Source of the DNA: Macrostomum lignano
Lineage: Eukaryota
Length of the DNA stretch: 64,000 nucleotides
Direction: 5' to 3'
Assembly: GCA_002269645.1 (NCBI GenBank)
Contig: NIVC01001136.1
Location: 1 to 64,000 of the forward strand
Positions 1-19,754 of the stretch are shown here, piece by piece; positions within the stretch are counted from its first letter, which is position 1; each line of letters begins with the position of its first letter. A program made the position numbers and the translations under genes. Under the pieces are notes generated by a model that worked only from the letters and a program-made list of their open reading frames with translations, ran no database searches and was not told the origin of the DNA.

Positions 1-101
1 ATATATACGAACACACTGACACAGAAAATATTCAATACACTCAAAACCAAACCAAGTATACATTATACTACTTGTTCAACTATACGTACATCTTAAGAGA
101 A

Positions 102-1024
102 ATGAAGCGATCACGTCAGCAGGAATTGGCCGAGCGCTATGTTAAACAAGGTAAGATAATCACCTACTCTAGTTCAGTTTTCTTTTTAGATTGACAGTTT
201 GCTAGTTTAGTTTCTTTATTTTTAGTTTTTTTGATTGATTGTTAGTTCGTTTTCTGTTTAGACCTATCTCTTTTAGCTCAGTTTACATTGATTCTCTGCT
301 AGTTCAGTCTCTAGATTGATTCTCTGCTAGTTCAGTCTCTAGATTGATTCTCTGCTAGTTCAGTCTCTAGATTGATTCTCTGCTAGTTCAGTCTCTAGAT
401 TGATTGTCTGCTAGTTCAGTTTCTGTTTAGACTGATTCTCTGCTAGTTCAGTTTCTATATACATTATTTACATGCACCTATACCAAATTTTCCCTCATCT
501 TATCCATTATTACAGCATTCAAGAATGGTGTCTTCACGCAGCCACCTCCAGATCAGTGCAAACGCATTTGCCATGCCACCACCACATCCAATTCTGCTGC
601 AAGAGCATCATACTACTCTACATCTCTCGCCAAAGTAACCTCGATTCATGTCGAGAGACAGACAACTGAGCTAGATCGCATTTACACAAGAACTGATGTT
701 ATTCAGTCAATTAGGCAGCAATCGAACCCACGACCAACTGACCAACTGCAGTATGCACCACCACCATCACCAACCAGCTACAATGACCCAACAGAGCAAG
801 CTTGCAGTGGACCTACAAGTACCAAACCAACGATAGCAAATGAAACACCGTCATCATCAATTGCTATTTCTACCCAAGTTCAACAGCTGCTAAACTCACC
901 AATTATTGTACAGAAGGACATCAAGTCTGTAAAAGTCTCTCAAACAAGCACAGGCTTCTACCAAGTAGAATTAACAAAAACCTGTAATACAACTCAAGTA
1001 TTTGAGTATTGGGACCTATCTTAA
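102..1024 (+). CDS. Two-exon ORF of 185 aa, unknown function (probable Polinton accessory gene)
   Basis: Exon 1 102-150 (MKRSRQQELAERYVKQ, then G|GTAAG); intron 151-515 ending TTACAG; exon 2 516-1024 is open for 168 codons in the phase-matched frame (AFKNGVFTQPPPDQCKRIC...FEYWDLS*). Absent from the ORF track because exon 2 has no in-frame start. Confidence 0.7.
288..452. repeat. 28-bp tandem repeat (CTGCTAGTTCAGTCTCTAGATTGATTCT), about 5-6 copies, inside the intron
   Basis: AGTTCAGTCT recurs at 301, 329, 357 and 385. Confidence 0.9.
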
Positions 1025-1558
1025 AAAGACATTTTTTCTAAATCTTCATCAAATTTTGCCAGCAATATGTCCAAGTAATTGCTCTTTTAGTATATATCAA
1101 ACAAGTATGTAATCAATAATATAATCTCTATAAATTCATTATTCTAAAAAATTCTCTCAATTTTATTCATCATTCATTGAAATTATTTAATTCAATATAA
1201 AGTCAATATCCTGTACAGTTATCATTAAACAAAAATATTAATCCATGCAAATAAACTTTTTCAATATTCTTAAACTTGTATTAAATGCTTCTTTAATTTT
1301 TTCTTACAAACTAAAAATGTAATAATGGTACATATTTAACAACAAAAAATTATATACAGTATTTAACTACAGTTACACTAATCAATAAAAATGATACAGT
1401 AATACAAAAATACTAAAACACAACACAAATGCAAGTAAATATATAATCATAAAATGCTAGTTTACTTTTGCAAGAAAAATATTAATACAACAACACTCCA
1501 CTCAGGAAAACATACAAAAATATTAATGCAAATAATTGTAATAAAAGAAAAAAAAATA

Positions 1559-1581
1559 ACACACACACACACACACACACA
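1559..1581. repeat. (AC)n microsatellite
   Basis: Seen directly. Confidence 0.9.
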
Positions 1582-1991
1582 TGAAATATTTACAAAATTG
1601 TAATCAAATCCACATAAGGCAAGAATTAGTAAATAAAAAACTAAATATTTTCAAATATTAAATGTACTAATTAAGTTTTTGTTTAAAAAATATACTATTT
1701 GCTTTATTATACACTATATATTTTTCTCCATCTATTGGGTTTAATATTTCTAGTGATCAAAGCTTTTTAAACAATCATTTTCTAGGTTTTATAAAAAATA
1801 TATAAAAAAGTTATATGTCTAAATGCTTCTTATAATTTTTATATAATGAATGAAAACTATGAAAACTATTTTTTATTACAGTTAATCAACAGAAAATAAA
1901 GGAGATAGGCAACTTTTGAAAAAGTAAATAAAAAGTAAAAGTAATTTCAGTTCGAAAAAGAAAGCGTCAAAAATAAACACAATCAAAGTAA

Positions 1992-2545
1992 TCAATTAGC
2001 AACTAGAGTTGCGTCCGAATCTATGGTTGATTCCTCTAGCCTACTCAAGCCATGCTGAGTGCTTGCAACTTCTGCTTGATTTAATCCATATGGCGTCGAT
2101 GTAACTATTTTAGCTATTCGACGAGGAGACTGCCAGTTGTCATTGTCAATTGTGCCCGAGGAAGAACCACAATTGGTAATAGGTGCTTTATTAGGAGTTA
2201 CAGCTGACACACTTGTCAATGCCGTCTCTTCCATCATTTTAGTACCACCAGTAGCAGGTGAACTAAAAGTAATTGAAAGACAGTTAACTTTTAATTAATA
2301 ATATTCTTTTTACAGTGTATCAAAGCCAAGACCAGAAAAATAGCTTACATGCTCTTCTTCCAATATCGCAATCGAAATGCGACAACAACAACGCACATGA
2401 CAGCAATGACAGCTACAATAATAACCTGAACCAGACCAATTCTTTCGGTTTGGCTCACTAATTTGTCGATATTGCTCACTAGCTTACTAATAGATTCCGC
2501 ATTTCCCTGAACTAAAATTACAACTTTATTAGTTTGGGGTACCAT
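1992..2545 (-). CDS. Two-exon single-pass membrane protein of about 155 aa
   Basis: Exon 1 2545-2349 (AT|GTAAGC); 86-nt intron 2348-2263 ending TTTTAG; exon 2 2262-1992 in frame, joining two ORF-track fragments. Hydrophobic IGLVQVIIVAVIAVMCVVVVAF is followed by the basic stop-transfer segment RLRYWKK and a Ser/Thr-rich tail. Confidence 0.7.
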
Positions 2546-2859
2546 TTTCTTCTAAACTAAATAAAAATATGCAAGACAAACAAAAGAAATTCTCTAAAAT
2601 AAAAGGCACACCTATAACAATAATCCAGCTCTAGACTCTAAACTATGAATCAACGTAAAGAAAATCTCCGTTTCAAAAATAAATTTTTTATTATATAAAT
2701 ATAACAAAAAATCGTAAACTAATACTTTGTAACTAATTAGAAATATTAAGTTTGCCAACTGTTAAACTTAAATACTTGAGCAAAATATAGGTATGGATGT
2801 AGGTACGATTAGCTACATTAATTTGTAAAAATTATCTTTCTTAAGCATGCGGAAAATAC

Positions 2860-3595
2860 GTTTCTTTAGCCATGGTCTGGCTTTTGCCTCATGATTTAGC
2901 CGTATGCTCCGACTTTTGCCTCAACAGTATGATTTAGTCGTATGGTCCGACTTTTATCCCAACAGTATGATTTAGCTGTGGTCCAGCTTTTACCTCAACA
3001 GTTTTTTAGCCGTGGTCCGGCTTTTTTTGCAACAGTATTATTTAGCTGTGGTCTAGCTTAAAACTGAATCAACAGTGATTTAGTTATAGTCCAGGCTTAA
3101 CTACCTCAACGATGATTTAGCTATAGTCCAGGCTTAACTGTCTCAACAGTAATTTTAGCTGTAGTCCAGACTTAACTGCCTCAACAGTGATTTTAGCTGT
3201 GGTCCAGGCAACTGTCTCAACAGGGATTTAGCTGTAGTCCGATTAGCTTAACTGTCCAGTTATTTAGCTGTGAGCCAAGCAGCAGCACCCGTCTCAACAG
3301 TGAGAATTAGCTATGGTCAGCTTTACCTCAACTGTGATTTGGCTGCTGTGGTCTAGCATAACTGACTCAACAGTAATTTTAGCTGTAGTCGTCCAGCTTA
3401 ACCACCCGTCCAGTTTTATAACCATGGTCCAGCTTAACCACCGTCTCAACGAACAGCGATTTAGTCGTGGTCCAGCTTAACCGTCTCAACGTACAGTGAT
3501 TTAGCCATGGGTCTAGTAGCAATTAACCGTATCAATAGTGATTTAGCCGTGGTCCAGCTTAACTGTCTCAACACAGTAATTTAGCTTAGTCCAAA
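2860..3595. repeat. Degenerate ~36-40-bp tandem array (consensus approx. TGATTTAGCTGTGGTCCAGCTTAACTGTCTCAACAG)
   Basis: TTTAGCTGTGGTCC and TCAACAG modules recur roughly 18-20 times between two divergently oriented genes. Confidence 0.85.
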
Positions 3596-4209
3596 CAGCA
3601 TTTGTGTGTCAACTGCACTGACTGCATGCGGTTATAGCAGCGGCAGTCATTATAGTCCCAACAAGCTGCGCGTCGCAGCATGATAGTGTAACTCTATATA
3701 GCTTCTGCTCAATATAGGACTGCAAAAGCTGAGTTGCAACTATACCTTTTTCTGTTTGAAAAGTAACACTCTATATATAGGTTACTCAAGCAATCTCTTG
3801 TCATCGTGCGAGCTAAAAAATTCCAACATGCAAGCAAAACTTTCAATAAATTAATTTCATAGCACCGCGTGCAGCTTATTTTTACTCTAAAATCCAAGAT
3901 TGCTAATTTTTCAAGTCGCAAAATATTTTAATTACATTCTACTTGAGAACAAAACCAATCTAATGAAGCAACAACCAGCAGTCTTCTTATTAAACGCTTG
4001 CCATCGTGTTACTCTTGCAAATTTATAACTAGTGTGCCTAAGATTCATTAATTTTATTGTATAAAATATCAACCTGCATTTGCGTAAAATTAGACCTAAT
4101 TGTGCAACCCACAATAGAAACTTATGCCACCTTTGGCACGCAACATGCCTTAATCAGCACGCAACAATTAAATTTGTTTACTAGTTCACAAACAGCATGC
4201 AATGCTTGC

Positions 4210-4217
4210 TATAAATA
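4210..4217 (+). promoter_or_regulatory. Canonical TATA box (TATAAATA) upstream of the replication-gene block
   Basis: TATAAATA lies 86 nt before ATG 4296. Function is inferred from position. Confidence 0.45.
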
Positions 4218-4295
4218 CAAGACCCGAAATGGTCAATTTTTCATGAGCTCAATCATTACAGCAAAAGAAATACTATATTCAATTGCTTGTAAGAC

Positions 4296-5522
4296 ATGGC
4301 AGCTTGCATCAAGACGGAGTCAATTGTACGCTCCGACTCGAGTCCGATTTTCTACGTTGGAGAGCAGTCTACAACCACGACTGGTTCGTCCTGCCAGTTT
4401 CGATCTATTGCGTGGAAACCATCAATCGAGTGTACAAAATGGTACCCAATTATATTGCAAACCAAGGCTCCAATGGAGCTTTTTCGTGGAATCGCAGAAA
4501 GGCCAGAGCTCGATCATCCGTCTTGCAGACACGACTCTCGCGACGCAGTAAGTGTCCAATTTCATCCAGACAGCTGCGATAAGGAACTCTTCCACTCTCT
4601 CCGGTGAGCACCATATTTAATTTATACAATTAATTTTAAAAACTTTTAAAAATTTAAAAAACAAATATTCATAATTTATATAATGTTTTGCAGTCAAGTC
4701 GAAAAAGGTCTATCGGGCAAGTTGAACGAGATTCAAGATGCTCGACCCTTGGCACGACTAACAAAACCAGCTCATCAGCATGCTAACGACGTCCTCGAGT
4801 TTGTGCCTCAACAATGGCTGGCTATAAAGCCTGCTTACCCTTGTGCCACAATCAGGATCAGCAACGATCATCCACACGGGAAGGAGGTGTCCATTTCCGA
4901 TTTCAAAGGTGTCAGCGGTACCTACCAAATGACAGTGCAAGCAACGAGCTTGTATTGTCCAAAAGGCAGCCTCGTCTGGCGCATTACATTCGCTGTGCGC
5001 TCTCTAACGCTCATAGAATCTTCCGACAACATGTTGCAGCGCCTTGACATGTTCAAGGGAGTGCTTGCACACCTACCTGCGACCAAGCCAGCAATTAGAA
5101 GCAGGAGTCCGTCCCCAACGTCTACCCATGACCAAGAAGAAGCAGATGAACAAAGCCGGCAGAATTCAAGCCAGGTGACGCCTGCCAAGTCACCTGCAAA
5201 GCGTCGGTCTACCACCACCGTATCGAAGAAGTCGACTCCATCGAATGCAGCGCCAGCATCTATTGAACCGGTGGCTAAAAAGCAAGTTCGCAAACGCAGC
5301 GGTGCAAAACAGCAAAACAATTCTGCCGAAGCTGGTGCAGATGGCACAGACTGGGTGAAGGCACCACCAGCAAAGATCTTGGTGAGTACACCTGCCTCTG
5401 GAACCCGGGTAGCGTCCAAGGAGACAGCATTTTTAAAGCATGCTGCTGCTGCTGCTGCGGACGCTACTACAGCTAGCGTGTATTCATCGGACGATTCGTA
5501 CAGCAGCTCTGATGATGAGTAA
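4296..5522 (+). CDS. Two-exon 378-aa protein, putative OB-fold single-stranded DNA-binding protein with disordered, acidic-ending tail
   Basis: Exon 1 4296-4603 (CG|GTGAGC); AT-rich intron 4604-4693 (TTGCAG); exon 2 4694-5522 in frame. The pattern IILQTKAPMELFRGI...VSVQF...ELFHSLRQVE plus a beta-rich C-terminal half recalls viral gp2.5-like SSBs. The tail is S/P/K-rich and ends SSDDSYSSSDDE. The fold call is pattern recognition only. Confidence 0.5.
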
Positions 5523-5730
5523 CAAAATTTTTGACTAATTTTATCCAAGTTTTAACTAACTTAATTCCACTATATTTATCAAATTTTTGGCTAGGGAAAT
5601 ATTATTTTTAGGGAAAAGCTCAAAACATTTTTGCTACTCCTTGTACGCCAACCAGGTTTTGTTACTTAATATTAGAATTTACAATAGTATAGTCTTGTTA
5701 ATTTTTTTTATTATTTACTTTCCGTTTTAG

Positions 5731-6288
5731 CGACTTGTCCTATTAATAGTTACTGCGAGTCTGAAGCTGCGTCCGTTTGAAAAATTTGATTTAAAGCAGA
5801 CCAAACAGAAGCTACAGACCAGAAACCGGTTTTGCAAACTATTCCTAAGCCGACCAACAATGCTAAAGACAATTTATTCAAACGCAAAAATCCAACTTTA
5901 TCCAGCAGGAAAACTAACTATATATGGCTGTAAATCAAATTCTCAGATAGTTTCAGTTTTACGATTTATCAACGATACTATTAATTGTGTAGATTTTGAT
6001 TCAGTAAAAATTCAGAGCAGTACCTATGTCGGCTTTATTGGTCATCTTTGGCCAAAATTCGGTTTCTCTAGTCTAAAAAGATATGCAGGCTACTATTCGA
6101 ATTATCTGGTTGGATACGATGCAGAAAATTTCCCACAAGCAGTTTCTGTTAGATCAAAATCAAAACCAAGACTTTTTTGTAACATATTTTTTTCGAAAAA
6201 GTTTGTTATTATGGGCGTTCAAAACACTCATGAATTGAATAATATTCTTAACCATGTCAAGGATTTTTTAATCTCTGTTAATAACTAA
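5731..6288 (+). CDS. Divergent TATA-box-binding protein (TBP)-like protein; needs an upstream exon for its start
   Basis: Open frame from acceptor TTTTAG|CGA (5730/5731) to 6288. Repeat 2 KIQSS...YDAENFPQAVSVRSKSKPRLFCNIFFSKKFVIMGV matches TBP KIQNM...[33 protein letters not shown]. Repeat 1 KFDLKQ...KIQLYPAGKLTIYGCKS matches KLDLKT...TALIFSSGKMVCTGAKS. Confidence 0.8.
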   Translation, partial: RLVLLIVTASLKLRPFEKFDLKQTKQKLQTRNRFCKLFLSRPTMLKTIYSNAKIQLYPAGKLTIYGCKSNSQIVSVLRFINDTINCVDFDSVKIQSSTYVGFIGHLWPKFGFSSLKRYAGYYSNYLVGYDAENFPQAVSVRSKSKPRLFCNIFFSKKFVIMGVQNTHELNNILNHVKDFLISVNN

Positions 6289-6516
6289 ACTTAACAAGTA
6301 AACAGTTGCTGTCAAATCGCAGTTGCGATGCATTATTTTACAAACATTTTGTCTTGTTTTCATTTCTTTACCAATTGTTTTCTCTAATAGTAAACGTGCC
6401 AGCTATAACCCAATCTAACTAACCAAATCATCATTTTTCTTACAGCCGCAAATGACAAACCGGATCATCTATTAATATTATGCTCGATACGCTCGTTGTC
6501 GAGCTAGGTGCACACA

Positions 6517-7221
6517 ATGCCGCGTGCACAATGTCAAATCTGCAGAAAAAAGTTCAGCAATCAAGCTGAGCTGCATGCTCACTCGCATGGTGATTGTTTT
6601 TCGCCGGAACGATTACTGGTCGGATCACTGCAAAACCTGATCGAAAACCCACCAGATGGATGGTCCATCACTTTGCGCGAGTCAGCTCATCGTGGTCGGG
6701 TAAATTTTGTCGAATTTACTCCCACTCTTGAACAACAAGACAGCAGCTCTGGCGAGTTACTTCCTGGCGAGTTGATTGCGTCTTTAAGAGGACTAATATT
6801 TAAAATATTGGAAAAAATTGGCTCACCTAGTTTATTAATAAGAGTCTGCTTTCACTTGAAAGTGACACTTTTTCGACCGAAAGCAGCAGCAGACGACAAC
6901 GATGGCTCGAGCAGCGAAGAAATCATCTCGGTCTATTTTAATACCAACATTGCGACAATATCATTTGATGAGACGATTGCAAACAGTGACATGCTGTTAT
7001 CTCCCGAGGCCTACAATGACTGGTTCGCACGCGTTATTAATCAGCTATTAACAAAAATAGACAATTTTCAATCTCGAGGCAGTAATTGGCAATATAGAGC
7101 AATCGAGCAGCTAGACTTGATGCTCTGCATTTATCGCAAAAGCCATGCAACCACACTGTTAACAAATACGTCCCACGATGGTGTGGGAGCGGGCGGCGGT
7201 GGTGGTGGTGGTGGTGGTGGT

Positions 7222-7259
<38 letters not shown>

Positions 7260-10200
7260 GCGCGGCGAGTCCGGTCCAGTCCGGTCCGGTCCAGTCCGGT
7301 CCGGTCCGATTAAACAGCGAGCGTTTAAAGTTCCACTCTCAATCGGGCGCAAAGCTGGAGCAGTACTGCTTCTAAAGCCGCACAGAGCAAATCAGTACGA
7401 CTGTTTTCGCTACTCAATATTGGCGAGTATATTTCATCCTTGTGTGCAAGATGCGAAAAGGAAAGACAGCTATGTGCAATGGATGAGAGAATTTAATTTT
7501 GGTCGACAAGCTAATGGACCAGCTCGCCATTCAAGTAGATCGTACAAAAAATTCTGCCGACGCAATCCGAGAGTTAGTCTACGAGTATTTGTGTGGGATC
7601 ACGACACCAAGACGAGCACATTATTTTACTCGCACAGAAGCAAATATGATGGCGATCGTTATTTTGCGAGCTGTCTGTTTGTGCCGCGGTATGACGATTT
7701 TGAATTTGGTCATTATTTACCAATTCGCAATTTGAACCGGTTATTGAGCAAGCGAGGTAAACAGCGACGATATTGTCCGGAGTGCACGGCTTCGTTTCCT
7801 TGCTCAACTTCGTGGGACTATATTCTCAAGGAGCATTGCTGTGAAGGTGGTAACGTGTCATCATCATCAGCTTCTAATATTGAATGGAGTTCGGATTTTG
7901 TGCCTCAAATCCGCGAGATTCGCCATCGACCACAAGAAGTAATGCCGAAACCAGAAGACGCAATTTTAAAATTTAAATCACACGAGGCAAAACTGCCTTC
8001 GTTGTATGTCTTGTACGCAGACATGGAATGTCTATGTGCACCTGCAAATAATGAAGCAAATGTAAAAAAGACTTGTAATTCGAAGCCGCTTGAAGTCCAC
8101 GTACCAATTTGTTTGGCCTATCGTCTGATAACTTGCCAAGGTTTGCAACTGACACCAAAACTAGCTGCAGCAGTTGGAATGGGCGACAAAAAACCTTGTG
8201 GAGTAATTTACTCGCAAAAAGATGGTGAGAATTGTGTTCGACTGTTTTTACGCAAACTTCAGACCATTGCCAGCGAGATTTGTCTGCATGCTCAGACTGA
8301 GACGTTTACTCCCTTGCTACGTGAATATCTCAATATTAAATCCAACAAGAAGCTTCAGCAGACTTGCCAACTATGCAAGCGAGTATTTGACAAGACTGAA
8401 AAAACTGTGCTGGACCATTGTCACTTGACTGGTTTGCCTCGTGGCATAGTTTGCGTCTCGTGTAATCGAAAGTTAAGTTTAAAACGATACCGATTGATTG
8501 TCTACTTTCACAATTTGGCTGCCTACGATGGTAAATTTCTTGTGCGAGAGATTTACAACGTGTTTTCTGGAAACAGTGTTCAACTAAGCGTGCTACCAGA
8601 GACTCGTGAACGCTTCAAGACGTTTTCGCTAAAGTTTACATTGCCAAGTAATCAACACAAGAATGGCTTTGTGCGGTTTGAGATTTGTTTCAAGGATACT
8701 TTTGCCTATTTATCGACAAGTTTGGCTACTCTAGCCGATCGACTGCTTCCCGAGCAACTAGTGCATACAAAAGAGTTGTTAAAAACGTATCCAAAGTTGG
8801 AGCTGGCAACTCTACGACAAAAGGGAATCTATCCCTACTCTTTTTTGGACTGCGAGGAAAAATTGGACAATGTGACACAGTTACCGCCGAAGGAGAATTT
8901 TTTCAACAAGCTTACAATGTCGCACTGCACGGAAGAAGATTATGGTCGAGCTTGTGTAGCTTGGAATCAGTTCGAGTGTCAAAATCTTCGAGATTATACA
9001 ACAGCCTATTTGTTGCTTGATGTACTGCTGCTATGCGACGTCTTTGAAAATTTTCGTCAGACTGCGCTGCGTGAATATGGTCTCGATCCGACTCACTTTT
9101 TGGGTGCACCGATGTTTAGCATGGTAGCCTGCCTGTTGCGGGTAGACGAGCCAATAAAATTGTTTACCGACGCATCTATGTATGCCGAAGTTGAGTCCTC
9201 CATTCGAGGCGGTTTCAGTTTTGGAACGCGACATGTAACGACGGCCAATAACCCGAGTGTAGCAGAGTACAGAAGCGAGTTTGATCGACTTGATCCGGAC
9301 TTTGAAAGCTTGCGAAAAAATGCACCATATGGAACTTATCTAGCATACTTGGACGCTAATTCGCTCTACTCAAGCTGCATGATTCAACCTTTACCAGTTG
9401 GCGATTTTTTATGGCTATCACGCGATGAAATTGGGAACATTCCAACCGATAGTGCGAGTGCAGACTATTTGGAAAGCCCAAGTGTTAAAAGTCAACTATT
9501 GGATTGGTTAGACAAGTTTTGTAACGACGAACAAGGAGCAATGTTCACTGTGGATCTATATTATCCTCGCTTCTTGCATGACTCGACAGCAGATCTTCCG
9601 CTTGCAATTGGTCACGAATTAGTTGGCGAAGACCGACTTAGTGAACAGATGAAACTGGACTGGTTTTGCCTTCAAAGAGAACTCAATCCAGATCGTTTTG
9701 AAAACGCAACAAGCTATGGTGATGTGAAAGCTTTCAGCAGCTCGACGCGAAAATTGATTGGGTCTGTGCTTCACAAAAAGAAGTATGTTGTGCATCATCG
9801 AGCTCTTCGATTGTATCTAGAATTGGGAATGCGCGTAACGCGTGTTTACCGCGTAATTCGATTTACAGAACGACCAATTTTGCGATACTATATTGAACAC
9901 AATATTGAGCGGCGTAAAGTAGCAAAAACTGAATTCGAACGCGACTTTTTCAAGTTGCTAAATAATGCTCTTTTCGGAAAGTTTCTGCAACGAGTTCGCG
10001 ATCGACTCAATTTCCGCATGTGTTCAGAAGCTGAAAAATTGGAGAAATATGTTTCTCGAGAAGATTTTCTTGACGTAGTAATTTATAATGAAAGTCTGGC
10101 AGGAGTTAGCCTCGCTCCACGTCGTGTTGCGCTAGACAAACCGATTATAATCGGTGCTGCAATCTTAGACATTGCAAAGACTCTTGTATACGACTTTTAT

Positions 10201-10752
10201 TACAATCATGTTCAGATTCATCATTCACTAGCAAGTGCTCGGGTACTCGCAGGAGATACTGATAGTCTTATGCTGGCTCTAGTTATGCGTAAACCGGACG
10301 AGACTCCTTACGATACCTTGTTCAAAGATTTGGCAGAAGAAGGTTTGCTAGACACGAGTAACTATTCACCATCGCATGCTCTGTACTCGACAAAGCACAA
10401 GGGTCGACTTTTGGCGTGGAAAGACGAGTTTAAAGGTTGTATACCACTGGAACTGGTATTTTTGCGACCAAAAAATTACTCCTTCGTGTATGCCAATGGA
10501 ACTATAGATCAAGTCTCGCGCTGCAAAGGTGTCTGCAAGACTGTAGCACAAAGTTTAAAGCATCAAGACTATTTGAGAGTTTTGCACAAGCGACAACTTG
10601 TGTTTTCGCGCATGCAGTCGATTCGTTCTAGAAAACAGAAAGTTTTTTTAATGCAACAAAGAAAACTTGCACTAAGTTTTTTCGACACGAAGCGATCTTG
10701 GACAGACTGCATCGATTCGCTGCCCTTTGGTCACTGGCGCTTGACCAATTAA
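6517..10752 (+). CDS. Protein-primed family B DNA polymerase (pPolB) with terminal-protein region, Zn fingers and an endonuclease-VII-like insertion
   Basis: Exo I YADMEC, Exo II HNLAAYDG, KGIYPY, Exo III YLLLDVLLL; motif A DANSLY, motif B KLLNNALFGK, motif C GDTDS; N-terminal C2H2 finger CQIC...H...H; CQLC...DHCHLTG...CVSCN module. First ATG is 6517 (the ORF track starts at GTG 6508). Confidence 0.97.
7192..7307. repeat. In-frame (GGT/GGC)n = 23 Gly, followed by CCGGT/CCAGT pentamer repeats, inside pPolB
   Basis: Seen directly; the reading frame is preserved. Confidence 0.9.
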
Positions 10753-11041
10753 CAATATGCTCTGATCTCTTTTGTTGTACAAAGTATAAATAGCATGCTA
10801 TAGAAGACTGTAAGCCATCAATAGTTTTTTCATTGATCATAATTTTACAATAAATAAATGGTGCGTGCATTCATTTAATCTATAATTTTAGCACTTTTTT
10901 GTGCTTAATTATTTGAAAGAGTATAATTTTTTATAGTTAGATTCGTATGACTAGGTTGTAGTGACCGTAAATGTAATTGCTAACGCTCATGTTTCAAGGA
11001 AAAAACTTTTTTAAACTTTCAGCTACAATTGAATCGACAAC

Positions 11042-11527
11042 ATGAATGCCGAGCAGCAGCAACAACAACAACAGCAGCAGCAGTACCAACTTTTAGTGGA
11101 ACGCCTGTACGAATCGGCAACAATTCCGGCCCGAAAAACTGTCGGCTCGATTGGTTACGATCTTTGCGCAGGCGTTGATGGCACTATTCCAGCCTACGAG
11201 TCCCGCAGTGTACGAACCGGACTTAAAGTCCGGTTACCGGCTGGTACGTATGGCAGGATTGCGGCCCGATCGAGCATGGCTCTGCGCGGTATCTTTGTTG
11301 GCGGTGGCGTAATCGACCCCGACTATACAGGGGAAATCTGTATAGTTTTATTCAACTACAGCTCGGAGGATTTTGATTACTACGCCGGGCTAAGTATCGC
11401 GCAACTCGTTCTTGAGCAGGCTGTGCTTGCTTCAGTCTATGCGATTGAAGCCGATAACTCCATTCGGAAGATTGAGCCGCCGACCAAGCGGCGCGGTTTT
11501 GGCGGCTTTGGAAGCACTGGTCAATAA
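11042..11527 (+). CDS. dut: Trimeric-type dUTPase with N-terminal poly-Gln
   Basis: All five motifs are present: GYDL, RSSMA, GGVIDPDYTGEI, IAQLV, RRGFGGFGSTG. Confidence 0.95.
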   Translation: MNAEQQQQQQQQQQYQLLVERLYESATIPARKTVGSIGYDLCAGVDGTIPAYESRSVRTGLKVRLPAGTYGRIAARSSMALRGIFVGGGVIDPDYTGEICIVLFNYSSEDFDYYAGLSIAQLVLEQAVLASVYAIEADNSIRKIEPPTKRRGFGGFGSTGQ

Positions 11528-11652
11528 TAATGATAATGATAATAAACTGATTTTTTTTTATTTGGTGATTGGGCACTATGCCTTGTAAATGCTATAAGCA
11601 ATTTTAAAATTTATGCCAAAAAAAAAATATATATATATATATATGTTGTAAA

Positions 11653-12072
11653 ATGTCTCCAGCGAAAGATCGAGGTTTTAAAAAGAAAAAGAAGAGCAGT
11701 CGTATAAAGAAGAAATCTATTAGAAAGATTAATAAAAAGCAACAAGGTTTTGGTGTCGTAAATTGGTTAATTAATCATTTACCATTTGAAGCGCATTTAC
11801 CCGGCGGATATCAGTTTTGTGGTCCAGGTACGCAACTGCAAGCTAGGCTAGCAAAAGGACAACGAGGAATCAATCGACTTGACAATTTGTGCATGCTTCA
11901 CGACGTGGCCTATGATAAAAATTCGGACGTGCAAGAGAGATTAAAAGCTGATAAGCTATTAGAATCTGGTGCACGAGAAATTGCCCACGATCCGTCTACT
12001 GGTTGGAAAGAAAAACTAGCTGCGAAGTTGGTTACCAAGGTTATGCAAGTTAAGCAACGCTTTGGTGCTTGA
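11653..12072 (+). CDS. Parvovirus VP1u-type phospholipase A2 domain protein with basic N-terminus (Polinton virion accessory protein)
   Basis: Ca-loop QFCGPG and catalytic LHDVAYD; K/R-rich N-terminus followed by QQGFG. Confidence 0.85.
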   Translation: MSPAKDRGFKKKKKSSRIKKKSIRKINKKQQGFGVVNWLINHLPFEAHLPGGYQFCGPGTQLQARLAKGQRGINRLDNLCMLHDVAYDKNSDVQERLKADKLLESGAREIAHDPSTGWKEKLAAKLVTKVMQVKQRFGA

Positions 12073-12074
12073 AA

Positions 12075-12764
12075 ATGCAGCAGCCATACAATATGCAACT
12101 AGCTCACGATTCTACATTTATTATTGCTGGACCTTCAAACTCGGGTAAAACTGAATGGACGTTGCGTTTGTTGACTGAACGAAAAGAATTATTTGATGAA
12201 AAACCGCGTCGTCTTGTTTGGTGTCATGGATCAAGTTTGAAACCAGACGATCAACAACGAATTAGAACATGCTGGCAAAAGAGCGGTCTTGACCCTATTG
12301 TTTTTGTACCCGAATTCATACCACAGATGATTAATCGTTTTTTACCACACGATTTGGTTGTTGTTGACGACTTGCAAAGCGAGATTGCTAAGTTGCCAGA
12401 ATTTACTAGTATGTTTACAAAGCATGCGCATCATATCCCTTTGACTTGTCTGTATCTTTGTCAAGGTCTTTTTAACAAGTCTGATCCCGAAGCACGCATG
12501 CGAAGTTTATCAGCTAGTTATATTTGTCTAACTCGTAGTGTGCGCGATCGAACCACAGTTGAGCATCTCGGTCGACAAATGTATCCGCGTAATAGTAGGT
12601 TTCTAGTGAATGTGTATGAAGACGCAACAAATAACAAACCTTTTTCATATTTATTCATTGACCTGCGACAAATGACACCCGATTTTTTACGATTGAGAAC
12701 AGGAATCTTTCCTGGCGATGAGCAAGTTGTCTATACTCGTGAATGTGATGCAAAGTTTGTGTAA
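12075..12764 (+). CDS. A32/FtsK-like DNA packaging ATPase
   Basis: Walker A GPSNSGKT, Walker B VVVDDLQ, and the A32-family segment FTKHAHH...CLYLCQGLF. Confidence 0.93.
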   Translation: MQQPYNMQLAHDSTFIIAGPSNSGKTEWTLRLLTERKELFDEKPRRLVWCHGSSLKPDDQQRIRTCWQKSGLDPIVFVPEFIPQMINRFLPHDLVVVDDLQSEIAKLPEFTSMFTKHAHHIPLTCLYLCQGLFNKSDPEARMRSLSASYICLTRSVRDRTTVEHLGRQMYPRNSRFLVNVYEDATNNKPFSYLFIDLRQMTPDFLRLRTGIFPGDEQVVYTRECDAKFV

Positions 12765-12821
12765 TATTATTATAAGCAAATTATAAACTGTTGTCAATAT
12801 TAGTTTGTGTTTTATTTCAAA

Positions 12822-13811
12822 ATGAGTTTTTACGTTTTTTTGCCGTCAAACGATATCAGTTACGAAACCAACTCGCCTAATGAATTTCGAGTACGACTAA
12901 CTGAACCAATAAATTTATTGAACGGATTCTTCGAGGTTGCACTAGTTGAATTACTTTGCCATGGAGCAATTACGACCCCAAATGCTCATCGTGAGCGTCG
13001 ATTTGAAGTTCCATATTTTGCGGACATTGACTCAATAATACGATTAAAGAAAAACTATTGGGGTCGCGTTTGGGCAGAGGCAGACTTGGATGCTTACGTT
13101 TCCTGGCAACCGTCTGGTACAAATGAAAAATTTGCCTGGCTTTTACGAAATTCAGGCGAAAAAACTATTGGATTAGAACTACCGGTTACATTTATGGACG
13201 CTTTCAAATTTGACTCTTGGAAGAAACTTTCTGGACTTGTCTCGGAAAAATTATCAAAACCTACCGCTGGTAGTGTACAACCACCGGATGGATCATACTT
13301 GGATGTGGTAAAAAGTCTCGACAATACTCTAGCGCTAGTACCTGAGAACTATTATGTTTTTTATTGTGTTCTATCGCCTGGTGAAGCTATACGACTTGTT
13401 TCGCATGGAGACTATCTTCAAAAAACGGAAGGAGAAGTGTACATCAAATTACACCAATATTGGTTGAGAAATCGTATTTGGCGCATTAACAAAACCTACT
13501 TGGATGCTGTGCTACCTTCTCCGATGCCTAGTAAAACGGTTTACATGTACTGTTACACAGACATAATCGAGTATCAAGCAGTGGGAAGTACATCAGTACC
13601 GTTGCTTCGAGTTGTGGAACTCCAACAAAAGAAAAATGGAGAACTTGTACGCGATAGCAGTGCATTGCAAACACCCTACTACTTGAAAACAAATCGACAA
13701 CAAATTCACGAGATTTCGATTCGACTATCGGACCAGCGCGGAAAACCATTTAATTTTCATCCGGGAGCACACGTTGTTGTCGTACTGCATTTTAGACACA
13801 GGTCAGACTAA
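12822..13811 (+). CDS. Minor capsid protein (penton-like single jelly roll)
   Basis: N-terminal LPSN...FRVRLTEPINL.G.FEVALVE and C-terminal YTDII...VG...PLLRVV...ISIRLSDQRGKP...VVVLHFR are typical of Polinton minor capsids. Confidence 0.85.
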   Translation: MSFYVFLPSNDISYETNSPNEFRVRLTEPINLLNGFFEVALVELLCHGAITTPNAHRERRFEVPYFADIDSIIRLKKNYWGRVWAEADLDAYVSWQPSGTNEKFAWLLRNSGEKTIGLELPVTFMDAFKFDSWKKLSGLVSEKLSKPTAGSVQPPDGSYLDVVKSLDNTLALVPENYYVFYCVLSPGEAIRLVSHGDYLQKTEGEVYIKLHQYWLRNRIWRINKTYLDAVLPSPMPSKTVYMYCYTDIIEYQAVGSTSVPLLRVVELQQKKNGELVRDSSALQTPYYLKTNRQQIHEISIRLSDQRGKPFNFHPGAHVVVVLHFRHRSD

Positions 13812-13867
13812 TTTATAAGCAAAGATTAATGTGTAAAAAGAAAATTTTGTGAATTTTTTTTGTAAGA

Positions 13868-14296
13868 ATGAACGAACTAACAGAAAAAGGAAAACGAAAT
13901 GCTCGCTCATTGTGTCAGTGTGCTTTTTTACTACAAATTGTTTATCGGCTAAAGCATCCAAAGCAGAGAAAAAGTTTTTTACAAACACTTTCAGAGTCGG
14001 AGATACGATGTCTAGTAGACTTTCTGTTTAATATTATTAGTGGACGTATTAAAATTAGTAACTGTAACAAAAGACGACTTGAGAAGCATCGCAGATATAT
14101 ACGTCAGCTTTTGGAACAGAAGACTCCAATTACTGCAAAAAGGAAAATACTTGTCCAACACGGAGGATTTTTACCTTTTTTGGCTCCAATTATTGCCGCT
14201 CTACCTGCTATAAGCACTGCGCTTGGGATAACGTCTGGAGTAGTTGGTACCGCCGCGGGAGCAGCAAATTTAATACGATCAATTCAACGAAAGTAG
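13868..14296 (+). CDS. Conserved Polinton small virion protein with a QxGG/FLP cleavage site and amphipathic C-terminus
   Basis: EIRCL...NIISGRI...L.KHR..IR.L...KRKIL.QHGGFLP pattern, then FLPFLAPIIAALPAISTAL. Confidence 0.7.
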   Translation: MNELTEKGKRNARSLCQCAFLLQIVYRLKHPKQRKSFLQTLSESEIRCLVDFLFNIISGRIKISNCNKRRLEKHRRYIRQLLEQKTPITAKRKILVQHGGFLPFLAPIIAALPAISTALGITSGVVGTAAGAANLIRSIQRK

Positions 14297-14304
14297 TAGG
14301 AATA

Positions 14305-14994
14305 ATGCGAGCCAAGGAGAGTAGTAGTTTTCAACGAATGTATCTAGTACCTGAATCTGTGTATCAATCTACATGTCAAGGAGCAGAACAAGGTTCGTCA
14401 CCAGCTGCTGAGGTACCTCGAAAAACTGAAGTTTTAGACGCACCGCAAGATGGTCTGGCAAAAAATATGGTGGAAATGAGAGAACAAATGGATAACTTGG
14501 ACAAGGAAATGGAGAAGGAGCCAAATTACACAGCTCAATTGAAACGAAGCAGATTGGAAGACAAACTTTTAAAATTACGCAAAGTCTATCGCACTGGAGA
14601 CGAGGACAATCTGCCACTTGTTCGCAAAGGGACTAATGTAAGAAGCTCATATGCCAGAGAATCAAGGGAAATTCCTAAAGTTTTTTTACCACGTTTCGAA
14701 GCTCTCGCTCAAAACCTATTTTCGGACATGGACAAGAATGCAGAACCAATGCTGGCTAATTTGACTGATGGCGAGATACAAGATCTCATGGAATATGTTG
14801 TTCGAGACAGACCGCTTAAGCGACACGAGACTCAACCACCTAGTGGACTAAAAACATTTTTAGACTTTCTTCGAAAACGTGGAATCGCAGCAAACCAAAT
14901 CGGGCGTCATGTACGAAACGAGCTAATGCATGCTCCAAAAACTGTTGCAAAGGAGGATCTTAGTCTGTTTGAAAATTATCAAACACTGGCTTAA
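14305..14994 (+). CDS. Polinton uncharacterised protein, 229 aa
   Basis: Intact ORF within the structural module. RMYLVP and LDKEM segments resemble a recurrent Polinton ORF; function unknown. Confidence 0.65.
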   Translation: MRAKESSSFQRMYLVPESVYQSTCQGAEQGSSPAAEVPRKTEVLDAPQDGLAKNMVEMREQMDNLDKEMEKEPNYTAQLKRSRLEDKLLKLRKVYRTGDEDNLPLVRKGTNVRSSYARESREIPKVFLPRFEALAQNLFSDMDKNAEPMLANLTDGEIQDLMEYVVRDRPLKRHETQPPSGLKTFLDFLRKRGIAANQIGRHVRNELMHAPKTVAKEDLSLFENYQTLA

Positions 14995-15092
14995 TTTGTT
15001 TTAAATGTTTTAACAAAATTGATTCGAGCACTATAAGCTTTTTAAAAAGGTTAATTTTGTTTATGAAAATATATAGTTTAATAAGACAAACC

Positions 15093-15281
15093 ATGTCATC
15101 TATCTGCCAAAAACTTTTGATTCGTCTCTGTGAGTTTTTTTGCTTAAAATCCGAATGTGTGCCGTTTCTGGGAGAGGAGCACAACGAGGATACTGACGGA
15201 AATTCGATCGAGGCTTCGTTCTTTTGTTGCAATTGGCATACGAATAGCATCAATCTAACTCATGATGAAGCGAGTGCGTAA
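15093..15281 (+). CDS. Small Cys-containing ORF (62 aa) overlapping the integrase start
   Basis: MSSICQKLLIRLCEFFCLKSEC...; ATG lies 61 nt after TATAAGC 15032, the same spacing as the other motif-associated genes. Confidence 0.4.
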   Translation: MSSICQKLLIRLCEFFCLKSECVPFLGEEHNEDTDGNSIEASFFCCNWHTNSINLTHDEASA

Positions 15282-16422
15282 GGAAATTGAAGAATTTTTG
15301 ACGGATGCTTTTTTTAACTTGAACAAACCTACTTCATTTAGTGGTAACAAGACTATACTTGTTCGTGAAGTGCGTAAAAAGTTTCCACAGATTACGAACA
15401 AAGTTGCGAAGCGCGAAGTTGATAATTGGGTGCGATCAACAAATGAGCATCATTTATTTCGAAAAACACGACGAAACTTTCCAACTCCAAAAATTAGTGT
15501 ACCACCAGTTGCAAAGTTTCAGTTTCAAATCGATTTGGCAGATTTACCTCGATACAAGACGGAAAATCGAGGTTATCGTTACATACTTGTTCTGATTGAC
15601 TGTTTTACTAGAGTTGTACGACTAAGACCATTGCGTACAAAGAAGCCTTCAGAAGTTAGTCAAGTATTACTAGAGATTTTTCGAAGTGGTTTTAAGCCTG
15701 TTTATTTACAAGGTGATGCTGGTATGGAGTTTCTCGGAAGAGCTACACGTCAAATGCTGAAACAGGAAGGAGTTCGATTTTTTGTTAGCCAAAGCAATTA
15801 CAAGGCAAGCATGGCTGAACGATTTATCCGCTCGCTAAAGGAGCGTCTATTACGATACTTTCGAGCAAAAAATTTACCTCGATGGTTTGATATTTTGCCA
15901 CAATTGGAAGATAATTTCAACTCTAGTCCTCATCGATCCTTGAGTGGAGAAACACCAAAACGTGTAGAGACAGACCCACATTTACAAGGAATTTTGTGGG
16001 ACAAAATGTTTGCGAAGTCGTACACTAAAAAGAATGAGAATAAATTTAAAGTTGGTGATTGGGTTAGAATTACACGACGTCGAGGAACATTTGAAAAAGG
16101 ATACACTACGAGTTGGAGTAATTCAAAATATCGCATTCACCGTGTACACTTGACAGAACCGCCAATGTACGAATTAGCGGACCCTGAAGATGGATTTGAA
16201 GTGCTGAAAGGAAGGTTTAACCAAGCGGAACTAATGTTGGTAAACGAGACAGATGAAACACCTAATGAAATTGAAAAAGTTATTGAAACTGATCGATCGA
16301 AAAATGGAAGTCGTCTGTATCTAGTAAAATGGAAAGGTATGCCAATCTCAAGAAGTCAGTGGTTAAACGAAAAGGATCTTGACGCAAAGACTGCTAAACT
16401 ATTTTCTAAAGTGTATAAGTAA
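15262..16422 (+). CDS. Retroviral-like (rve) DDE integrase with SH3-like and C-terminal chromodomain
   Basis: QIDLADL (D), LQGDAGMEF (D), ASMAERF (E); FKVGDWVRI; IEKVI...YLVKWKG...QWL. Confidence 0.96.
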   Translation: MMKRVRKEIEEFLTDAFFNLNKPTSFSGNKTILVREVRKKFPQITNKVAKREVDNWVRSTNEHHLFRKTRRNFPTPKISVPPVAKFQFQIDLADLPRYKTENRGYRYILVLIDCFTRVVRLRPLRTKKPSEVSQVLLEIFRSGFKPVYLQGDAGMEFLGRATRQMLKQEGVRFFVSQSNYKASMAERFIRSLKERLLRYFRAKNLPRWFDILPQLEDNFNSSPHRSLSGETPKRVETDPHLQGILWDKMFAKSYTKKNENKFKVGDWVRITRRRGTFEKGYTTSWSNSKYRIHRVHLTEPPMYELADPEDGFEVLKGRFNQAELMLVNETDETPNEIEKVIETDRSKNGSRLYLVKWKGMPISRSQWLNEKDLDAKTAKLFSKVYK

Positions 16423-16463
16423 CACATGAATTGGGATTGCATGACGATGAGAAGACTGTTGAA

Positions 16464-16922
16464 ATGGATCCTATTTTTGCTTTTTATTCTGGTCCGAATA
16501 GATCTGCTGAAGGTGGAGGTGGATCTGGCATTCCTGTTTACGAAGGTTACGGTTTTTTGTCAAATTTGGCGGACAGATTGGTGTATCCTGTACTACGCAA
16601 CGCAAAGAAAGATTTCTTGGATCGTGGTCTGGAGTATTTGAAAAGTGCGACAGCAAAAATTGGTATGGGTCGGAAGCGTCACTTGGACACAGAATCGAGC
16701 GAAGAGATGTTTAATACACCTGCAGTCTCGAGACCAAAGCGAAGGAAAAGAACCAGTGGAGTGGCTATAAGCTTAGGAAAGAAGAAACGACAAAAGAAAC
16801 GACGAACAAGACAGTGTGGAAAAGGACGCGTGAACAAACGAAAACGCAAGAGGGTAGGTGGTAAAAGAAAACGTCGAACTGCTACTGCAAGCAAGAAACT
16901 TTTTAGTCTGTTTGAAAAGTAG
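16464..16922 (+). CDS. Basic DNA-condensing core-protein precursor (adenovirus pVII-like role inferred)
   Basis: YEGYGFLSNL amphipathic segment, then a protamine-like K/R-rich C-terminus (RPKRRKR...KKKRQKKRRTRQCGKGRVNKRKRKR). Confidence 0.7.
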   Translation: MDPIFAFYSGPNRSAEGGGGSGIPVYEGYGFLSNLADRLVYPVLRNAKKDFLDRGLEYLKSATAKIGMGRKRHLDTESSEEMFNTPAVSRPKRRKRTSGVAISLGKKKRQKKRRTRQCGKGRVNKRKRKRVGGKRKRRTATASKKLFSLFEK

Positions 16923-16923
16923 C

Positions 16924-18246
16924 ATGAATCATTTGCTTGGACCTGATATTGCTGCTCTTAAAAGTGAATTGTCGCTATTTGATCAAAGTCCTGTTCAGTT
17001 TAGTGTTTTGGATAATCGGTATACTAACATTCAACCGCAACATGGTATTACAAAAGGATCACCTATCGAATTTGAGGTTGTGCCTGCAGGCGATTTGTAT
17101 TTGGATCTACAAGAAACTGTGCTCACGGTATGCTTCAGCGTTAGTGATAGTGAAGGTGAACCTATAGATGCAACAAAAAATTTTGTTTGTTTGAATAATT
17201 TGGCTATTGGAACATTGTTTGAAGACGTTCAATTTACTATTGGCGATACTGTAGTTGAAGGTGGTAGTTTTATGTATCCATACAAGGCTATGCTTCTTAC
17301 ATTACTGGAATACGGACATACAGCTCAGAAGGCTGGTTTACTACCGTGGGGATTTTACAAGGATACAGCTGGTAAAATGAATGCAACAAGTGAAAACGAT
17401 GGACGAACAAAGAGGCAGGCGCTTATTGCTAACAATAGGCGGTGCACTGTATCGGGGCCGTTATTCTTGGATTTGTTTCGTCAGCCTCGGTATCTACTAT
17501 CAAAGACACCACTGCGGATCAAGCTCATACCGGCAAAAAGTAAATTTGTCCTGAGCGGGTCAACATTAGAAGCTGGTGCGGTATTAAAAGACTATGAGAT
17601 CAAGTTTTTGCGTGCAGAACTACGATTGCGGTTTGTTCAACCCTCGCCGAGTGTTATCAGTGCACATGCTCATGGACTTAAAAGTCACAATGCATTATAT
17701 CCGCACCGAAGTCTAAGCCTTGGTACGTTTACTATACCCCGAGGATCGTCTAGCCATACGCATGAAAATTTGTTTCCTAGTGGAGTACCACGGCTTTTAT
17801 TGATGGCAATCGTAAGCAACAAGGCATTCAATGGAAGCATGGACACTAATCCGTTCAACTTTGAGCATGCAAATGTGAGCAGCATTGGTGTGTTTGTGAA
17901 TGGAGACTCGGTACCATCGCGTCCGCTGCAGACAAACTTTGGAGATGATTGTGTGACAGAGTATAATTTTTTGCTACAACAGCTTGGAATCTATCTACAG
18001 GGACGAGATATTGGATTTAATATGCTGGATTACGGTAATGGTTACTCAATTTTTGCATTCAGTCTTGGAAGTGAACCTGGTGTCGGACGAGGAGTGCAAC
18101 TGTATAAGGAAGGAAATGTAAAACTAGAGTTACGCTTCAATGCTGCAACTAGTACCGTGTACAACGTCATATTTGGAGGTATATTTGACAAGCAACTGCA
18201 ACTGACTGAACTTCGCGACATTGTTCCTGGCACAGTATGGAAGTAA
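16924..18246 (+). CDS. Major capsid protein (double jelly roll)
   Basis: KSELSLF...PIEFEV...YLDL and later GPL..DLF.Q.RYL, NPFNF, GY.IFAF.L, LELRF motifs. ATG at 16924 (the ORF track starts at 16858). Confidence 0.93.
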   Translation: MNHLLGPDIAALKSELSLFDQSPVQFSVLDNRYTNIQPQHGITKGSPIEFEVVPAGDLYLDLQETVLTVCFSVSDSEGEPIDATKNFVCLNNLAIGTLFEDVQFTIGDTVVEGGSFMYPYKAMLLTLLEYGHTAQKAGLLPWGFYKDTAGKMNATSENDGRTKRQALIANNRRCTVSGPLFLDLFRQPRYLLSKTPLRIKLIPAKSKFVLSGSTLEAGAVLKDYEIKFLRAELRLRFVQPSPSVISAHAHGLKSHNALYPHRSLSLGTFTIPRGSSSHTHENLFPSGVPRLLLMAIVSNKAFNGSMDTNPFNFEHANVSSIGVFVNGDSVPSRPLQTNFGDDCVTEYNFLLQQLGIYLQGRDIGFNMLDYGNGYSIFAFSLGSEPGVGRGVQLYKEGNVKLELRFNAATSTVYNVIFGGIFDKQLQLTELRDIVPGTVWK

Positions 18247-18800
18247 TTGATTCTATCCTAGATCGTGGAGTAACAGATCGCTTCCTTCGCAATGTTGTAT
18301 CGAAATTGTGCGCACATTTTTTAAATGTTGTATTTCTTGGTGTTTTTCCTCAAAACTTTGTTGGTGGACTTAGACGCTTACCTTTAGACGGTAAAGACTA
18401 TTTTTTTATCGTTAATACTGACGTCTCTAACCTGCCCGGAAAACATTGGGTATGCGTTTGGGTTTATGGTCATCGAGCAGGTCGCGGTAGCAAACGACTT
18501 GGTGAATATTTTGATTCTCTTGGTCTAGTACCATTGCCAAGAATAGCAAAATGGCTAGGAAAAGAATGTGGAAATTCGAAAAATTGGTGTTATAGTCGCT
18601 TTGCTATCCAAGACCCGCAGAGTGGAAGTTGTGGATTTTGGGTAATTTTTTATATTTTTCATAAGTTGACTACCAGAGGAAACCTAGAGTGTTTTATTCG
18701 AAGCGTTTTTAAACGGAATATAATTCGCACTGGTTCGTTTCGATACTTGTATGGTAAATTACGCAATTTTGTTTTACGAGTGCTGCCTCAATATTTGTAA
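18237..18800 (+). CDS. Adenain-like (C5) cysteine maturation protease
   Basis: His/Asp/Cys motifs: NTD...GKHWV, YFDSLG, Q....SCGFW. Confidence 0.92.
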   Translation: MEVIDSILDRGVTDRFLRNVVSKLCAHFLNVVFLGVFPQNFVGGLRRLPLDGKDYFFIVNTDVSNLPGKHWVCVWVYGHRAGRGSKRLGEYFDSLGLVPLPRIAKWLGKECGNSKNWCYSRFAIQDPQSGSCGFWVIFYIFHKLTTRGNLECFIRSVFKRNIIRTGSFRYLYGKLRNFVLRVLPQYL

Positions 18801-19735
18801 ACTCGCTAATTTGTGCGTCAAATTGTGTTTATATCTAGTTGAAATATACAATATACTGCTTGAAAAGAAGAATTTAAATGCGTTAAGTTATACGTGAAAT
18901 AAGCTTTGTGTCAAATTGAATTTTGGTTGGGCTTGTAATTAGCAGCATTCATTGCGGATAGAATTTAGGTGGATAGACAGGTGTTTGCGTAAAAGTGATT
19001 CAGCTAATTGGTTAATTCATTGCGTAAAAGCTAGTTTGCGTGCACGGCAAATTTCGGACTCTGCCATTTTTTTGGGCCTGTACTTACTATGTATTTCGCC
19101 ATAAGGAAATCGGCTTTGTGTCAAAAAAACGTATACTACTATTGTATATTTTGCTATCCTCTCTCGCAACCGTATAAAATTGGCACGATCGATAATTTTA
19201 AGTTCTCTCGCCAGCCAATGAAATCACTCGTGCTCGCGCTACCCCCCTCTGCGCTCTTTTATTAAACCCCCCCCCGCCTGGCGGCGGCACTCCCCGCTTG
19301 TTCCTTGATTCCTTCCCTGCGGCCTCTTAGCTGTCTTATCTGTTTGTCTGGCTGCCTCGAGCCTCCTTATTTCTCACCACGGCCCCTCTGCCTGGGCCAG
19401 CCTGCTCACACACTTACTTGACTGTTTCGCGCCACGACCGACGCCAACTCGCCACTACGTTTCACTGCCTTCACTGTGCTCATAGCCACTGCTCACGTCA
19501 CGTCGCCATTGTGTCATTCGCCTGCCACTTGACTTCATATCCAAATTATATTCAACCCATTGTTGCAGCCGCCAGTGCCCAGAAAGCTATAGTCTGTTTA
19601 TTGCCAGTAACAACCAAACTTAATACTGATATTAACAATAAAGACAACTACGGCAGTTCCTGCCTTTATCGCCAAGTGCTCCGCTACAAAATCCGCTTTA
19701 CAAGAATTGACTTCAACTTATTTTGGGACTAAAAC

Positions 19736-19754
19736 GGCCCTTTTAAGGGTCACC
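19736..19754 (+). other. Histone-mRNA-type 3' stem-loop with no recognisable histone gene
   Basis: AAAC-GGCCCT-TTTA-AGGGTC-ACC: a 6-bp stem (one G.U pair), 4-nt loop and matching flanks, immediately after the TAA of a 104-codon non-histone ORF. Confidence 0.4.

Follow-up and report, generated by a model that had tools for sequence, protein, structure and literature searches.

The window analysed here, 64,000 nt of a contig from Macrostomum lignano, opens inside a Polinton/Maverick element of a Macrostomum-type flatworm. The element (positions 1–19140, + strand) starts ~465 bp before the window does, so that the window holds the right-hand part of an element of ~19.6 kb. It is bounded by terminal inverted repeats of ~104 bp, the right one at 19037–19140, and its ends read AGTAGT/ACTACT; in copy C4373 the sequence CACATT flanks both sides, constituting a 6-bp target duplication. 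The protein-primed DNA polymerase B (pPolB; 6517–10752, + strand; PF03175, E = 3.6e-20) carries an endonuclease VII domain and, in the lineage of the window, has an ATG of its own. The retrovirus-like integrase matches PF00665 (rve) with 33.5 bits against a cut-off of 32.6 and bears a chromodomain. Other Pfam matches are to dUTPase (ATG 11042, stop 11527), a PLA2-like protein and an adenovirus pX-like protein, and the match to an adenovirus-type protease is weak (PF00770, E = 0.038 only). The capsid and ATPase candidates, which we take to be such from their size, order and conservation and from general knowledge of the group, received no Pfam, NCBIfam or PHROG name, and the major capsid candidate matched no PDB sequence. 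The ten genes that follow pPolB all have their own ATG. No Rfam family was found in 1–20000. The left arm also contains a degenerate tandem repeat array (2860–3600) and two unexplained ORFs (431–1024 and 1992–2294).

Among the best 40 of 47 candidates in the genome, at least 30 full-length matches to 4200–6500 were found at 96–100% identity, the window included. Most of pPolB is missing from 27 of these 30 close copies; the deletion is common to the 27 (L039:7196; window 7389–10552) and marks a non-autonomous subfamily. More distant relatives were collected by a protein search with 83 matches, from which 20 divergent loci were taken and sorted by eye into five sister lineages, making six lineages with that of the window; two decayed copies at 77–79% identity were given no weight. 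No related loci were found in metagenome or viral contigs. In the five sister lineages a nucleotide-kinase gene lies between the TBP-like frame described below and pPolB (L044:4632–5297; C297 of the genome assembly); it is absent from the lineage of the window, and in one sister lineage the TBP-like domain and the kinase share one frame. The right flank of the window copy (19141–19146) matches the left flank of C84, whose right flank matches the left flank of C2373 (L037, L041, L036), and these three identical copies may represent fewer loci crossed in assembly. The segment just right of the element end (19180–19788) recurs inside a decayed copy (L031:2447–3083), between a truncated pPolB and a left terminal inverted repeat, which suggests nested or rearranged elements.

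Gene A and the TBP-like frame

The first gene considered, gene A, is preceded by a TATA-like box (4210–4217, + strand), a candidate promoter with similar boxes upstream of gene A in the sisters; RNA contigs also cover the DNA upstream of this box. Exon 1 (4296–4603, + strand) begins at its own ATG, 4296, and is followed by intron 1 (4604–4693, + strand), a spliceosomal intron of phase 2, and by exon 2, which in its long form spans 4694–5522 (+ strand) and consists of a folded domain, a low-complexity linker and a 46-codon acidic tail. Splicing of 4604–4693 yields a protein of 378 aa that matches a UniRef record (P0009) of the same length. The UniRef gene A proteins are labelled M. lignano, and all three UniRef clusters end in the acidic tail. 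Their UniRef names (P0006–P0010) refer to a VASt or YDG domain, and neither of the two proteins scanned had such a Pfam match. From modelling, gene A probably encodes a T7/Enc34-type single-stranded DNA-binding protein (SSB), though the evidence is slight: a half-domain model of exon 2 gave weak Foldseek matches to phage ssDNA-binding proteins (E ~1e-3 to 1e-2) with VIA Z scores of only 2.1–2.5, and the Atlas neighbours of gene A are viral clusters, some with DUF2738/DUF5871 in 10–29% of members. Comparison of gene A with PDB sequences gave no useful match, and exon 1 had no Atlas match of ≥0.9. T7-like SSBs are described in giant viruses and their small relatives in the accessible text of PMC10962738.

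Downstream lies a TBP-like ORF of 185 codons without an initiator of its own (5731–6288, + strand). It matches PF00352 with 31.2 bits against a cut-off of 22.9, in two stretches, and its profile matches 35 PDB sequences, every one of them TBP-containing. The predicted model (pLDDT 90.8) places a strand, a helix and a strand within residues 5–38, and residues 1–185 align to solved TBPs with Z of 10.2–12.3, albeit at a high rmsd of 7–8 Å. By this model the ORF is a whole two-repeat TBP fold from codon 1. Structural alignment equates model residue 1 with residue 66 of yeast TBP and residue 10 of the Pyrococcus protein, a point at which solved TBP cores have a few more residues; a short conserved motif before the gene A donor at 5381/5382 could supply these missing N-terminal residues. 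TBPs typically have four intercalating phenylalanines. Three of these positions are occupied in the TBP-like domain by invariant aromatic residues, Y57, F134 and F153, and by repeat symmetry the fourth appears to be Arg/Lys41. A search of representative proteins with the TBP-like query returned five matches, namely four unnamed relatives and a repetitive tick protein, the latter dropped as an artefact. No match of near length was found among proteins, nor any of 451–2000 aa, the latter search being weak.

The original prediction held that this ORF lacks a start codon and begins directly behind a strong acceptor, and here sequence, Pfam match and model agree. The acceptor TTTTAG/CGA lies at 5730/5731, its TAG is in frame, and the TBP similarity follows at once. 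The sole ATG in 5523–5862 is 5860 (5860–5862, + strand; Met44), inside TBP repeat 1. When the 419 AGs in 4200–11100 are scored crudely for pyrimidines, the acceptor at 5730 comes out on top. Acceptor-like sites had also been reported before pPolB (6445) and dUTPase (11022); both are present, and the same score places them in the top 4 and top 26, respectively.

RNA contigs and the host spliced leader

The RNA evidence consists of contigs from four of 24 listed runs, belonging to four studies, over the stretch 3700–7150; none of the runs is on record as RNA. Contig depth was ~5–20, and contigs drop rare forms. Two uncovered intervals, 5564–5976 in run X1 and 5341–5726 in run X5, were given no weight. 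Among the contig pieces listed for the four runs in 3700–7150, a single type of cis joint was reported, the GT..AG joint of intron 1, present in three of the four. Its donor, CCG/GTGAGC at 4603/4604, is the one actually used to join the two exons of gene A and had been left out of the original prediction; a donor at this place was also seen in all four sister lineages visible in the comparison. Contigs from three of the four runs cross the donor at 5381 unspliced, unspliced contigs cover the TBP acceptor, and one contig of run X9 is unspliced over 5292–7150, which as a contig is not proof of a single transcript. Neither a joint between 5381 and 5731 nor a leader at 5731 was seen among the contig pieces listed for the four low-depth runs. 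Because depth was low and rare forms are lost in contigs, these absences limit either route without excluding it.

A leader was seen at the next acceptor. In one contig of run X8, and hence in one of the four runs, 23 loose letters precede 6446, placing a joint at 6445/6446 directly behind the acceptor at 6426–6445 (+ strand). These letters coincide with the 3′ portion of the 35-nt spliced leader of Macrostomum lignano, which ends in AUG, as given in excerpts of PMC8629364. The 3′ motif of the leader has 58 matches in the genome, against none for a reversed control. Together with the UniRef labels, this bears out the assumption of a flatworm host with an AUG-ending leader. The contig carries the allele of a sister copy at 6534, unlike the window type, but the 30 close copies all share one acceptor sequence. 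A leader-tagged retrocopy in the genome was considered as the source of the contig and rejected, since none of the 35 genomic copies of the exon start at 6446 lies beside any of the 58 leader matches; the joint is therefore best read as trans-splicing. The genomic leader matches are often spaced ~11 kb apart (C1214, C3830, C4525 and C4853), and the six examined (L064–L069) have no GT donor after them; from these sequence features, the 58 may not be leader genes but retroelements tagged with the leader.

A YTNCAG acceptor precedes pPolB in all six lineages. In four sister lineages (L044, L046, L048 and L052) pPolB starts in frame at this TTCCAG acceptor; in two of these the open frame contains no Met ahead of the acceptor, and in the other two a non-conserved Met lies 15 or 36 codons further up. 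In these four, we infer that the AUG of the leader would replace the pPolB ATG. The remaining two lineages have their own pPolB ATG just before the same Pro, out of frame with the acceptor. In the window, a leader AUG at 6446 or at 11023 would be out of frame with the element's own genes, so that there the leader would resolve the cistron rather than supply a Met. The site before dUTPase (11003–11022, + strand) is a candidate acceptor, with similar sites in some sisters. After the leader joint at 6446 the frame closes after 9 codons, and two ATGs (6452 and 6480) precede that of pPolB, features that may damp pPolB translation; a weak in-frame acceptor lies at 6507/6508, within 6446–6516.

Initiation of the TBP-like frame

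All sites are conserved throughout the 30 close copies, but at 96–100% identity this carries no information, and the comparison was made across the six lineages. A pyrimidine-rich YAG stands directly before TBP codon 1, in phase 0, in all six (among the 20 divergent loci, 16 in register and four off by 1–10 nt through indels), whereas an ATG is found at TBP codon 1 in none of them and at the pPolB start in two. The donor TTG/GTGAGT at 5381/5382, in phase 0, is present as originally described. A phase-0 GTRAG follows K-x-L in each of the six lineages, within the low-complexity end of gene A, 42–50 codons before the stop and 270–619 nt from the TBP acceptor; in five of six exon 2 contains no other GTRAG, and the sixth has one more in a different phase. 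Four-fold synonymous sites are saturated between lineages (identity 0.12–0.42) and shared Ser codons often switch class, which makes the retention of GTR-AGY improbable by chance: counting the two closest lineages as one, the probability of keeping it in five independent lineages is p ~7e-4 by codon usage, or ~3e-3 on the basis of 24 of 74 VS pairs elsewhere. The TBP acceptor alone is in frame with the donor in all six lineages, the pPolB acceptor being out of frame in two.

It is mainly because only the TBP acceptor is in frame with the donor in every lineage that we prefer alternative cis-splicing from 5381/5382 to 5730/5731. The TBP-like frame is then probably, though by no means certainly, translated as the end of an SSB-like/TBP-like fusion of 517 aa. 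Read-through of the internal donor gives the 378-aa gene A protein with its acidic tail, as seen in the contigs and the UniRef record; use of the donor would remove a predicted intron of 349 nt (5382–5730, + strand) and swap the acidic tail for the TBP domain (332 + 185 = 517 aa). That transcripts of this Polinton family undergo splicing is evident from intron 1 and from the leader joint. Gene A, the TBP-like frame and pPolB likely form one early unit, and, given the leader joint at 6445/6446, which was seen once, the early block is likely a leader-resolved operon, in which the leader would resolve pPolB and probably dUTPase. An adenovirus-like spliced early unit had been proposed; spliced it is, but a leader-resolved operon with one alternative cis-splice describes it better than a purely adenovirus-like arrangement. 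Against the cis-fusion, the 5381–5731 junction was not seen among the contig pieces listed for the four low-depth runs, contigs of three runs cross the donor unspliced, the three UniRef clusters of gene A all retain the tail, and the weak search among proteins of 451–2000 aa did not find the fused protein. As the tail motif RVASK is conserved too, selection on the protein could account in part for the retention of the Val-Ser behind the donor. In addition, cis-splicing is said to be rare at operon-resolving acceptors of parasitic flatworms (PMC12582326, excerpts).

The strongest alternative is that the host leader is trans-spliced at 5731 after 3′ cleavage of the gene A transcript and provides the only start, giving a stand-alone TBP-like protein of 186 aa. 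As had been pointed out, the AUG of the leader would be in frame at the TBP acceptor, and this is the case in all six lineages. Joining of the leader was seen at 6446, the acceptor that follows; pPolB is in frame at its acceptor in four sister lineages; and the gaps of 208 and 157 nt fit the operon spacing of Macrostomum in the accessible sources. Initiation at the leader AUG is established for host genes, with over 40 cDNAs of Schistosoma starting in this way (Cheng 2006, cited by PMC9851317 in its accessible part). However, the four runs contain no leader at 5731, compared with one at 6446, and the conserved phase-0 donor would be left unexplained. A[AT]TAAA is absent after the gene A stop in four of six lineages, the window included, and trans-splicing is reportedly less favoured where a donor lies upstream in cis (excerpts of PMC8629364). 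As the exclusive mechanism, leader addition at 5731 seems unlikely, if still worth serious consideration. Since flatworm acceptors often serve both cis- and trans-splicing, although rarely at operon-resolving sites, some leader use at 5731 may coexist with the cis-fusion.

Alternatively, the TBP-like frame could be silent in the integrated copies, its splice signals then dating from an active ancestor and the RNA representing read-through. RNA coverage is low and even, including the DNA ahead of the TATA-like box; no joint was seen at 5731; and the loss of most of pPolB from the 27 close copies would fit. We nevertheless regard silence as improbable, as the frame is intact in 26 of the close matches and neighbouring splice events were seen; even if true now, it would not alter the manner of initiation the gene evolved for. 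Translation from Met44 (ATG 5860) on unspliced or separately initiated RNA is of similar improbability, perhaps slightly greater. All ten aligned sequences have Met44, and the coverage of the acceptor by unspliced contigs would agree with such a start, but the resulting truncated protein would lack what codons 1–43 contribute to the TBP model, namely its first two strands and the helix between them. No lineage of the six has a stop within these codons, and over the first 14 of them variation is lowest at the second codon position (0.53/0.36/0.63 for positions 1, 2 and 3). Finally, the first of the two donors named in the original prediction, GCA/GTAAGT at 4547/4548 (GTAAGT at 4548–4553, + strand, 84 codons from ATG 4296), exists and has the consensus and phase 0 for an 84 aa + TBP product, but we reject it as very improbable, since contigs read through it in four of four runs, splicing being seen at 4603 instead, and the five sister lineages lack a GTRAG that corresponds in position and phase; one of them does carry a GTRAG close by, though in a different phase.

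A candidate late promoter and comparison with known systems

The motif TATAAG[CT] occurs seven times on the coding strand of the window element, as candidate late promoters at 11593, 12771, 13814, 14209, 15032, 16414 and 16766 (11593–16772, + strand), five of which sit 50–96 nt before an ATG of the structural block. Across the six lineages the coding-strand counts are 7, 5, 6, 10, 7 and 5 against 0–1 on the other strand, with shuffle means of 1–2 and maxima of 3–7. As the motif was picked by eye after seeing the data, its position upstream of structural-block genes in six of six lineages weighs more than the shuffles. On sequence grounds TATAAG[CT] is a candidate target of the TBP-like domain, and the fusion would most plausibly be a replication-linked activator of structural genes acting through it. 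Taken further, the polymerase in several lineages would take its Met from the host leader, tying these Polintons to flatworms, and the SSB-TBP fusion would act as an early/late switch at a private TATAAG[CT] promoter; we advance this combined view only tentatively and consider it more doubtful than not.

In the literature outside Repbase, subscription journals and supplements, we found no report linking Polintons to spliced leaders, a TATAAG motif or Macrostomum, and no early/late switch of this kind described for Polintons; the accessible portions of PMC12220804, bioRxiv 2023.08.22.554363, PMC11161782, bioRxiv 2026.06.19.733378 and PMC5803895 contain nothing on a Polinton TBP, leaders or late promoters. 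For the activation of Polinton capsid genes, this element offers a conserved and testable scheme of alternative splice, TBP-like factor and candidate late promoter. ORF callers miss or truncate genes of this type, so annotations of elements in trans-splicing hosts may include too few TBP-like genes and polymerase starts.

The element shares with animal Polintons/Mavericks (adintoviruses), as presented in parts of PMC8502044, PMC8097293 and bioRxiv 2022.07.12.499685, the pPolB, rve integrase, PLA2-like, dUTPase, pX-like and protease-like genes, the terminal inverted repeats, the 6-bp target duplication and the size of ~19.6 kb. The core genes of vertebrate and nematode Mavericks are reported to be intronless, with introns only in cargo genes (PMC8097293 and bioRxiv 2022.07.12.499685, in part). 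In contrast, the transcripts of the present element carry both a spliced intron, in a gene conserved across six lineages, and a host spliced leader, received by pPolB, and its TBP-like frame has no start. A TBP label appears in the legend of Fig. 5 of PMC8502044, in the portion available, for non-animal MELD viruses. With the spliced-leader operons of flatworms (PMC8629364, PMC9851317 and PMC12582326, excerpts) the element has in common the 3′ leader sequence, its terminal AUG, gaps of <1 kb and [T/C]TNCAG acceptors, but in those excerpts such operons are described for host genes, whereas the substrate here is a virus-like element. A further departure is that one of its acceptors has a conserved partner donor within the coding sequence upstream.

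In adenovirus E2, a DNA-binding protein and a protein-primed polymerase are expressed from one spliced unit, and the polymerase takes its start from outside the main exon; adenoviruses are not known to use leaders other than in cis or to encode a TBP. The present element likewise would combine a DNA-binding protein and pPolB in one spliced unit, unlike adenovirus with a leader trans-spliced from the host. TBP-like late factors are known from beta- and gammaherpesviruses. The element resembles the giant viruses with TBP-like late factors in having a TBP fold in a DNA virus and a candidate non-standard TATA motif before structural genes, but differs from them in its much smaller size and in lacking an RNA polymerase of its own. 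Its TBP, moreover, would be joined by splicing to an SSB-like domain, and in one lineage it reads in frame into a nucleotide kinase.
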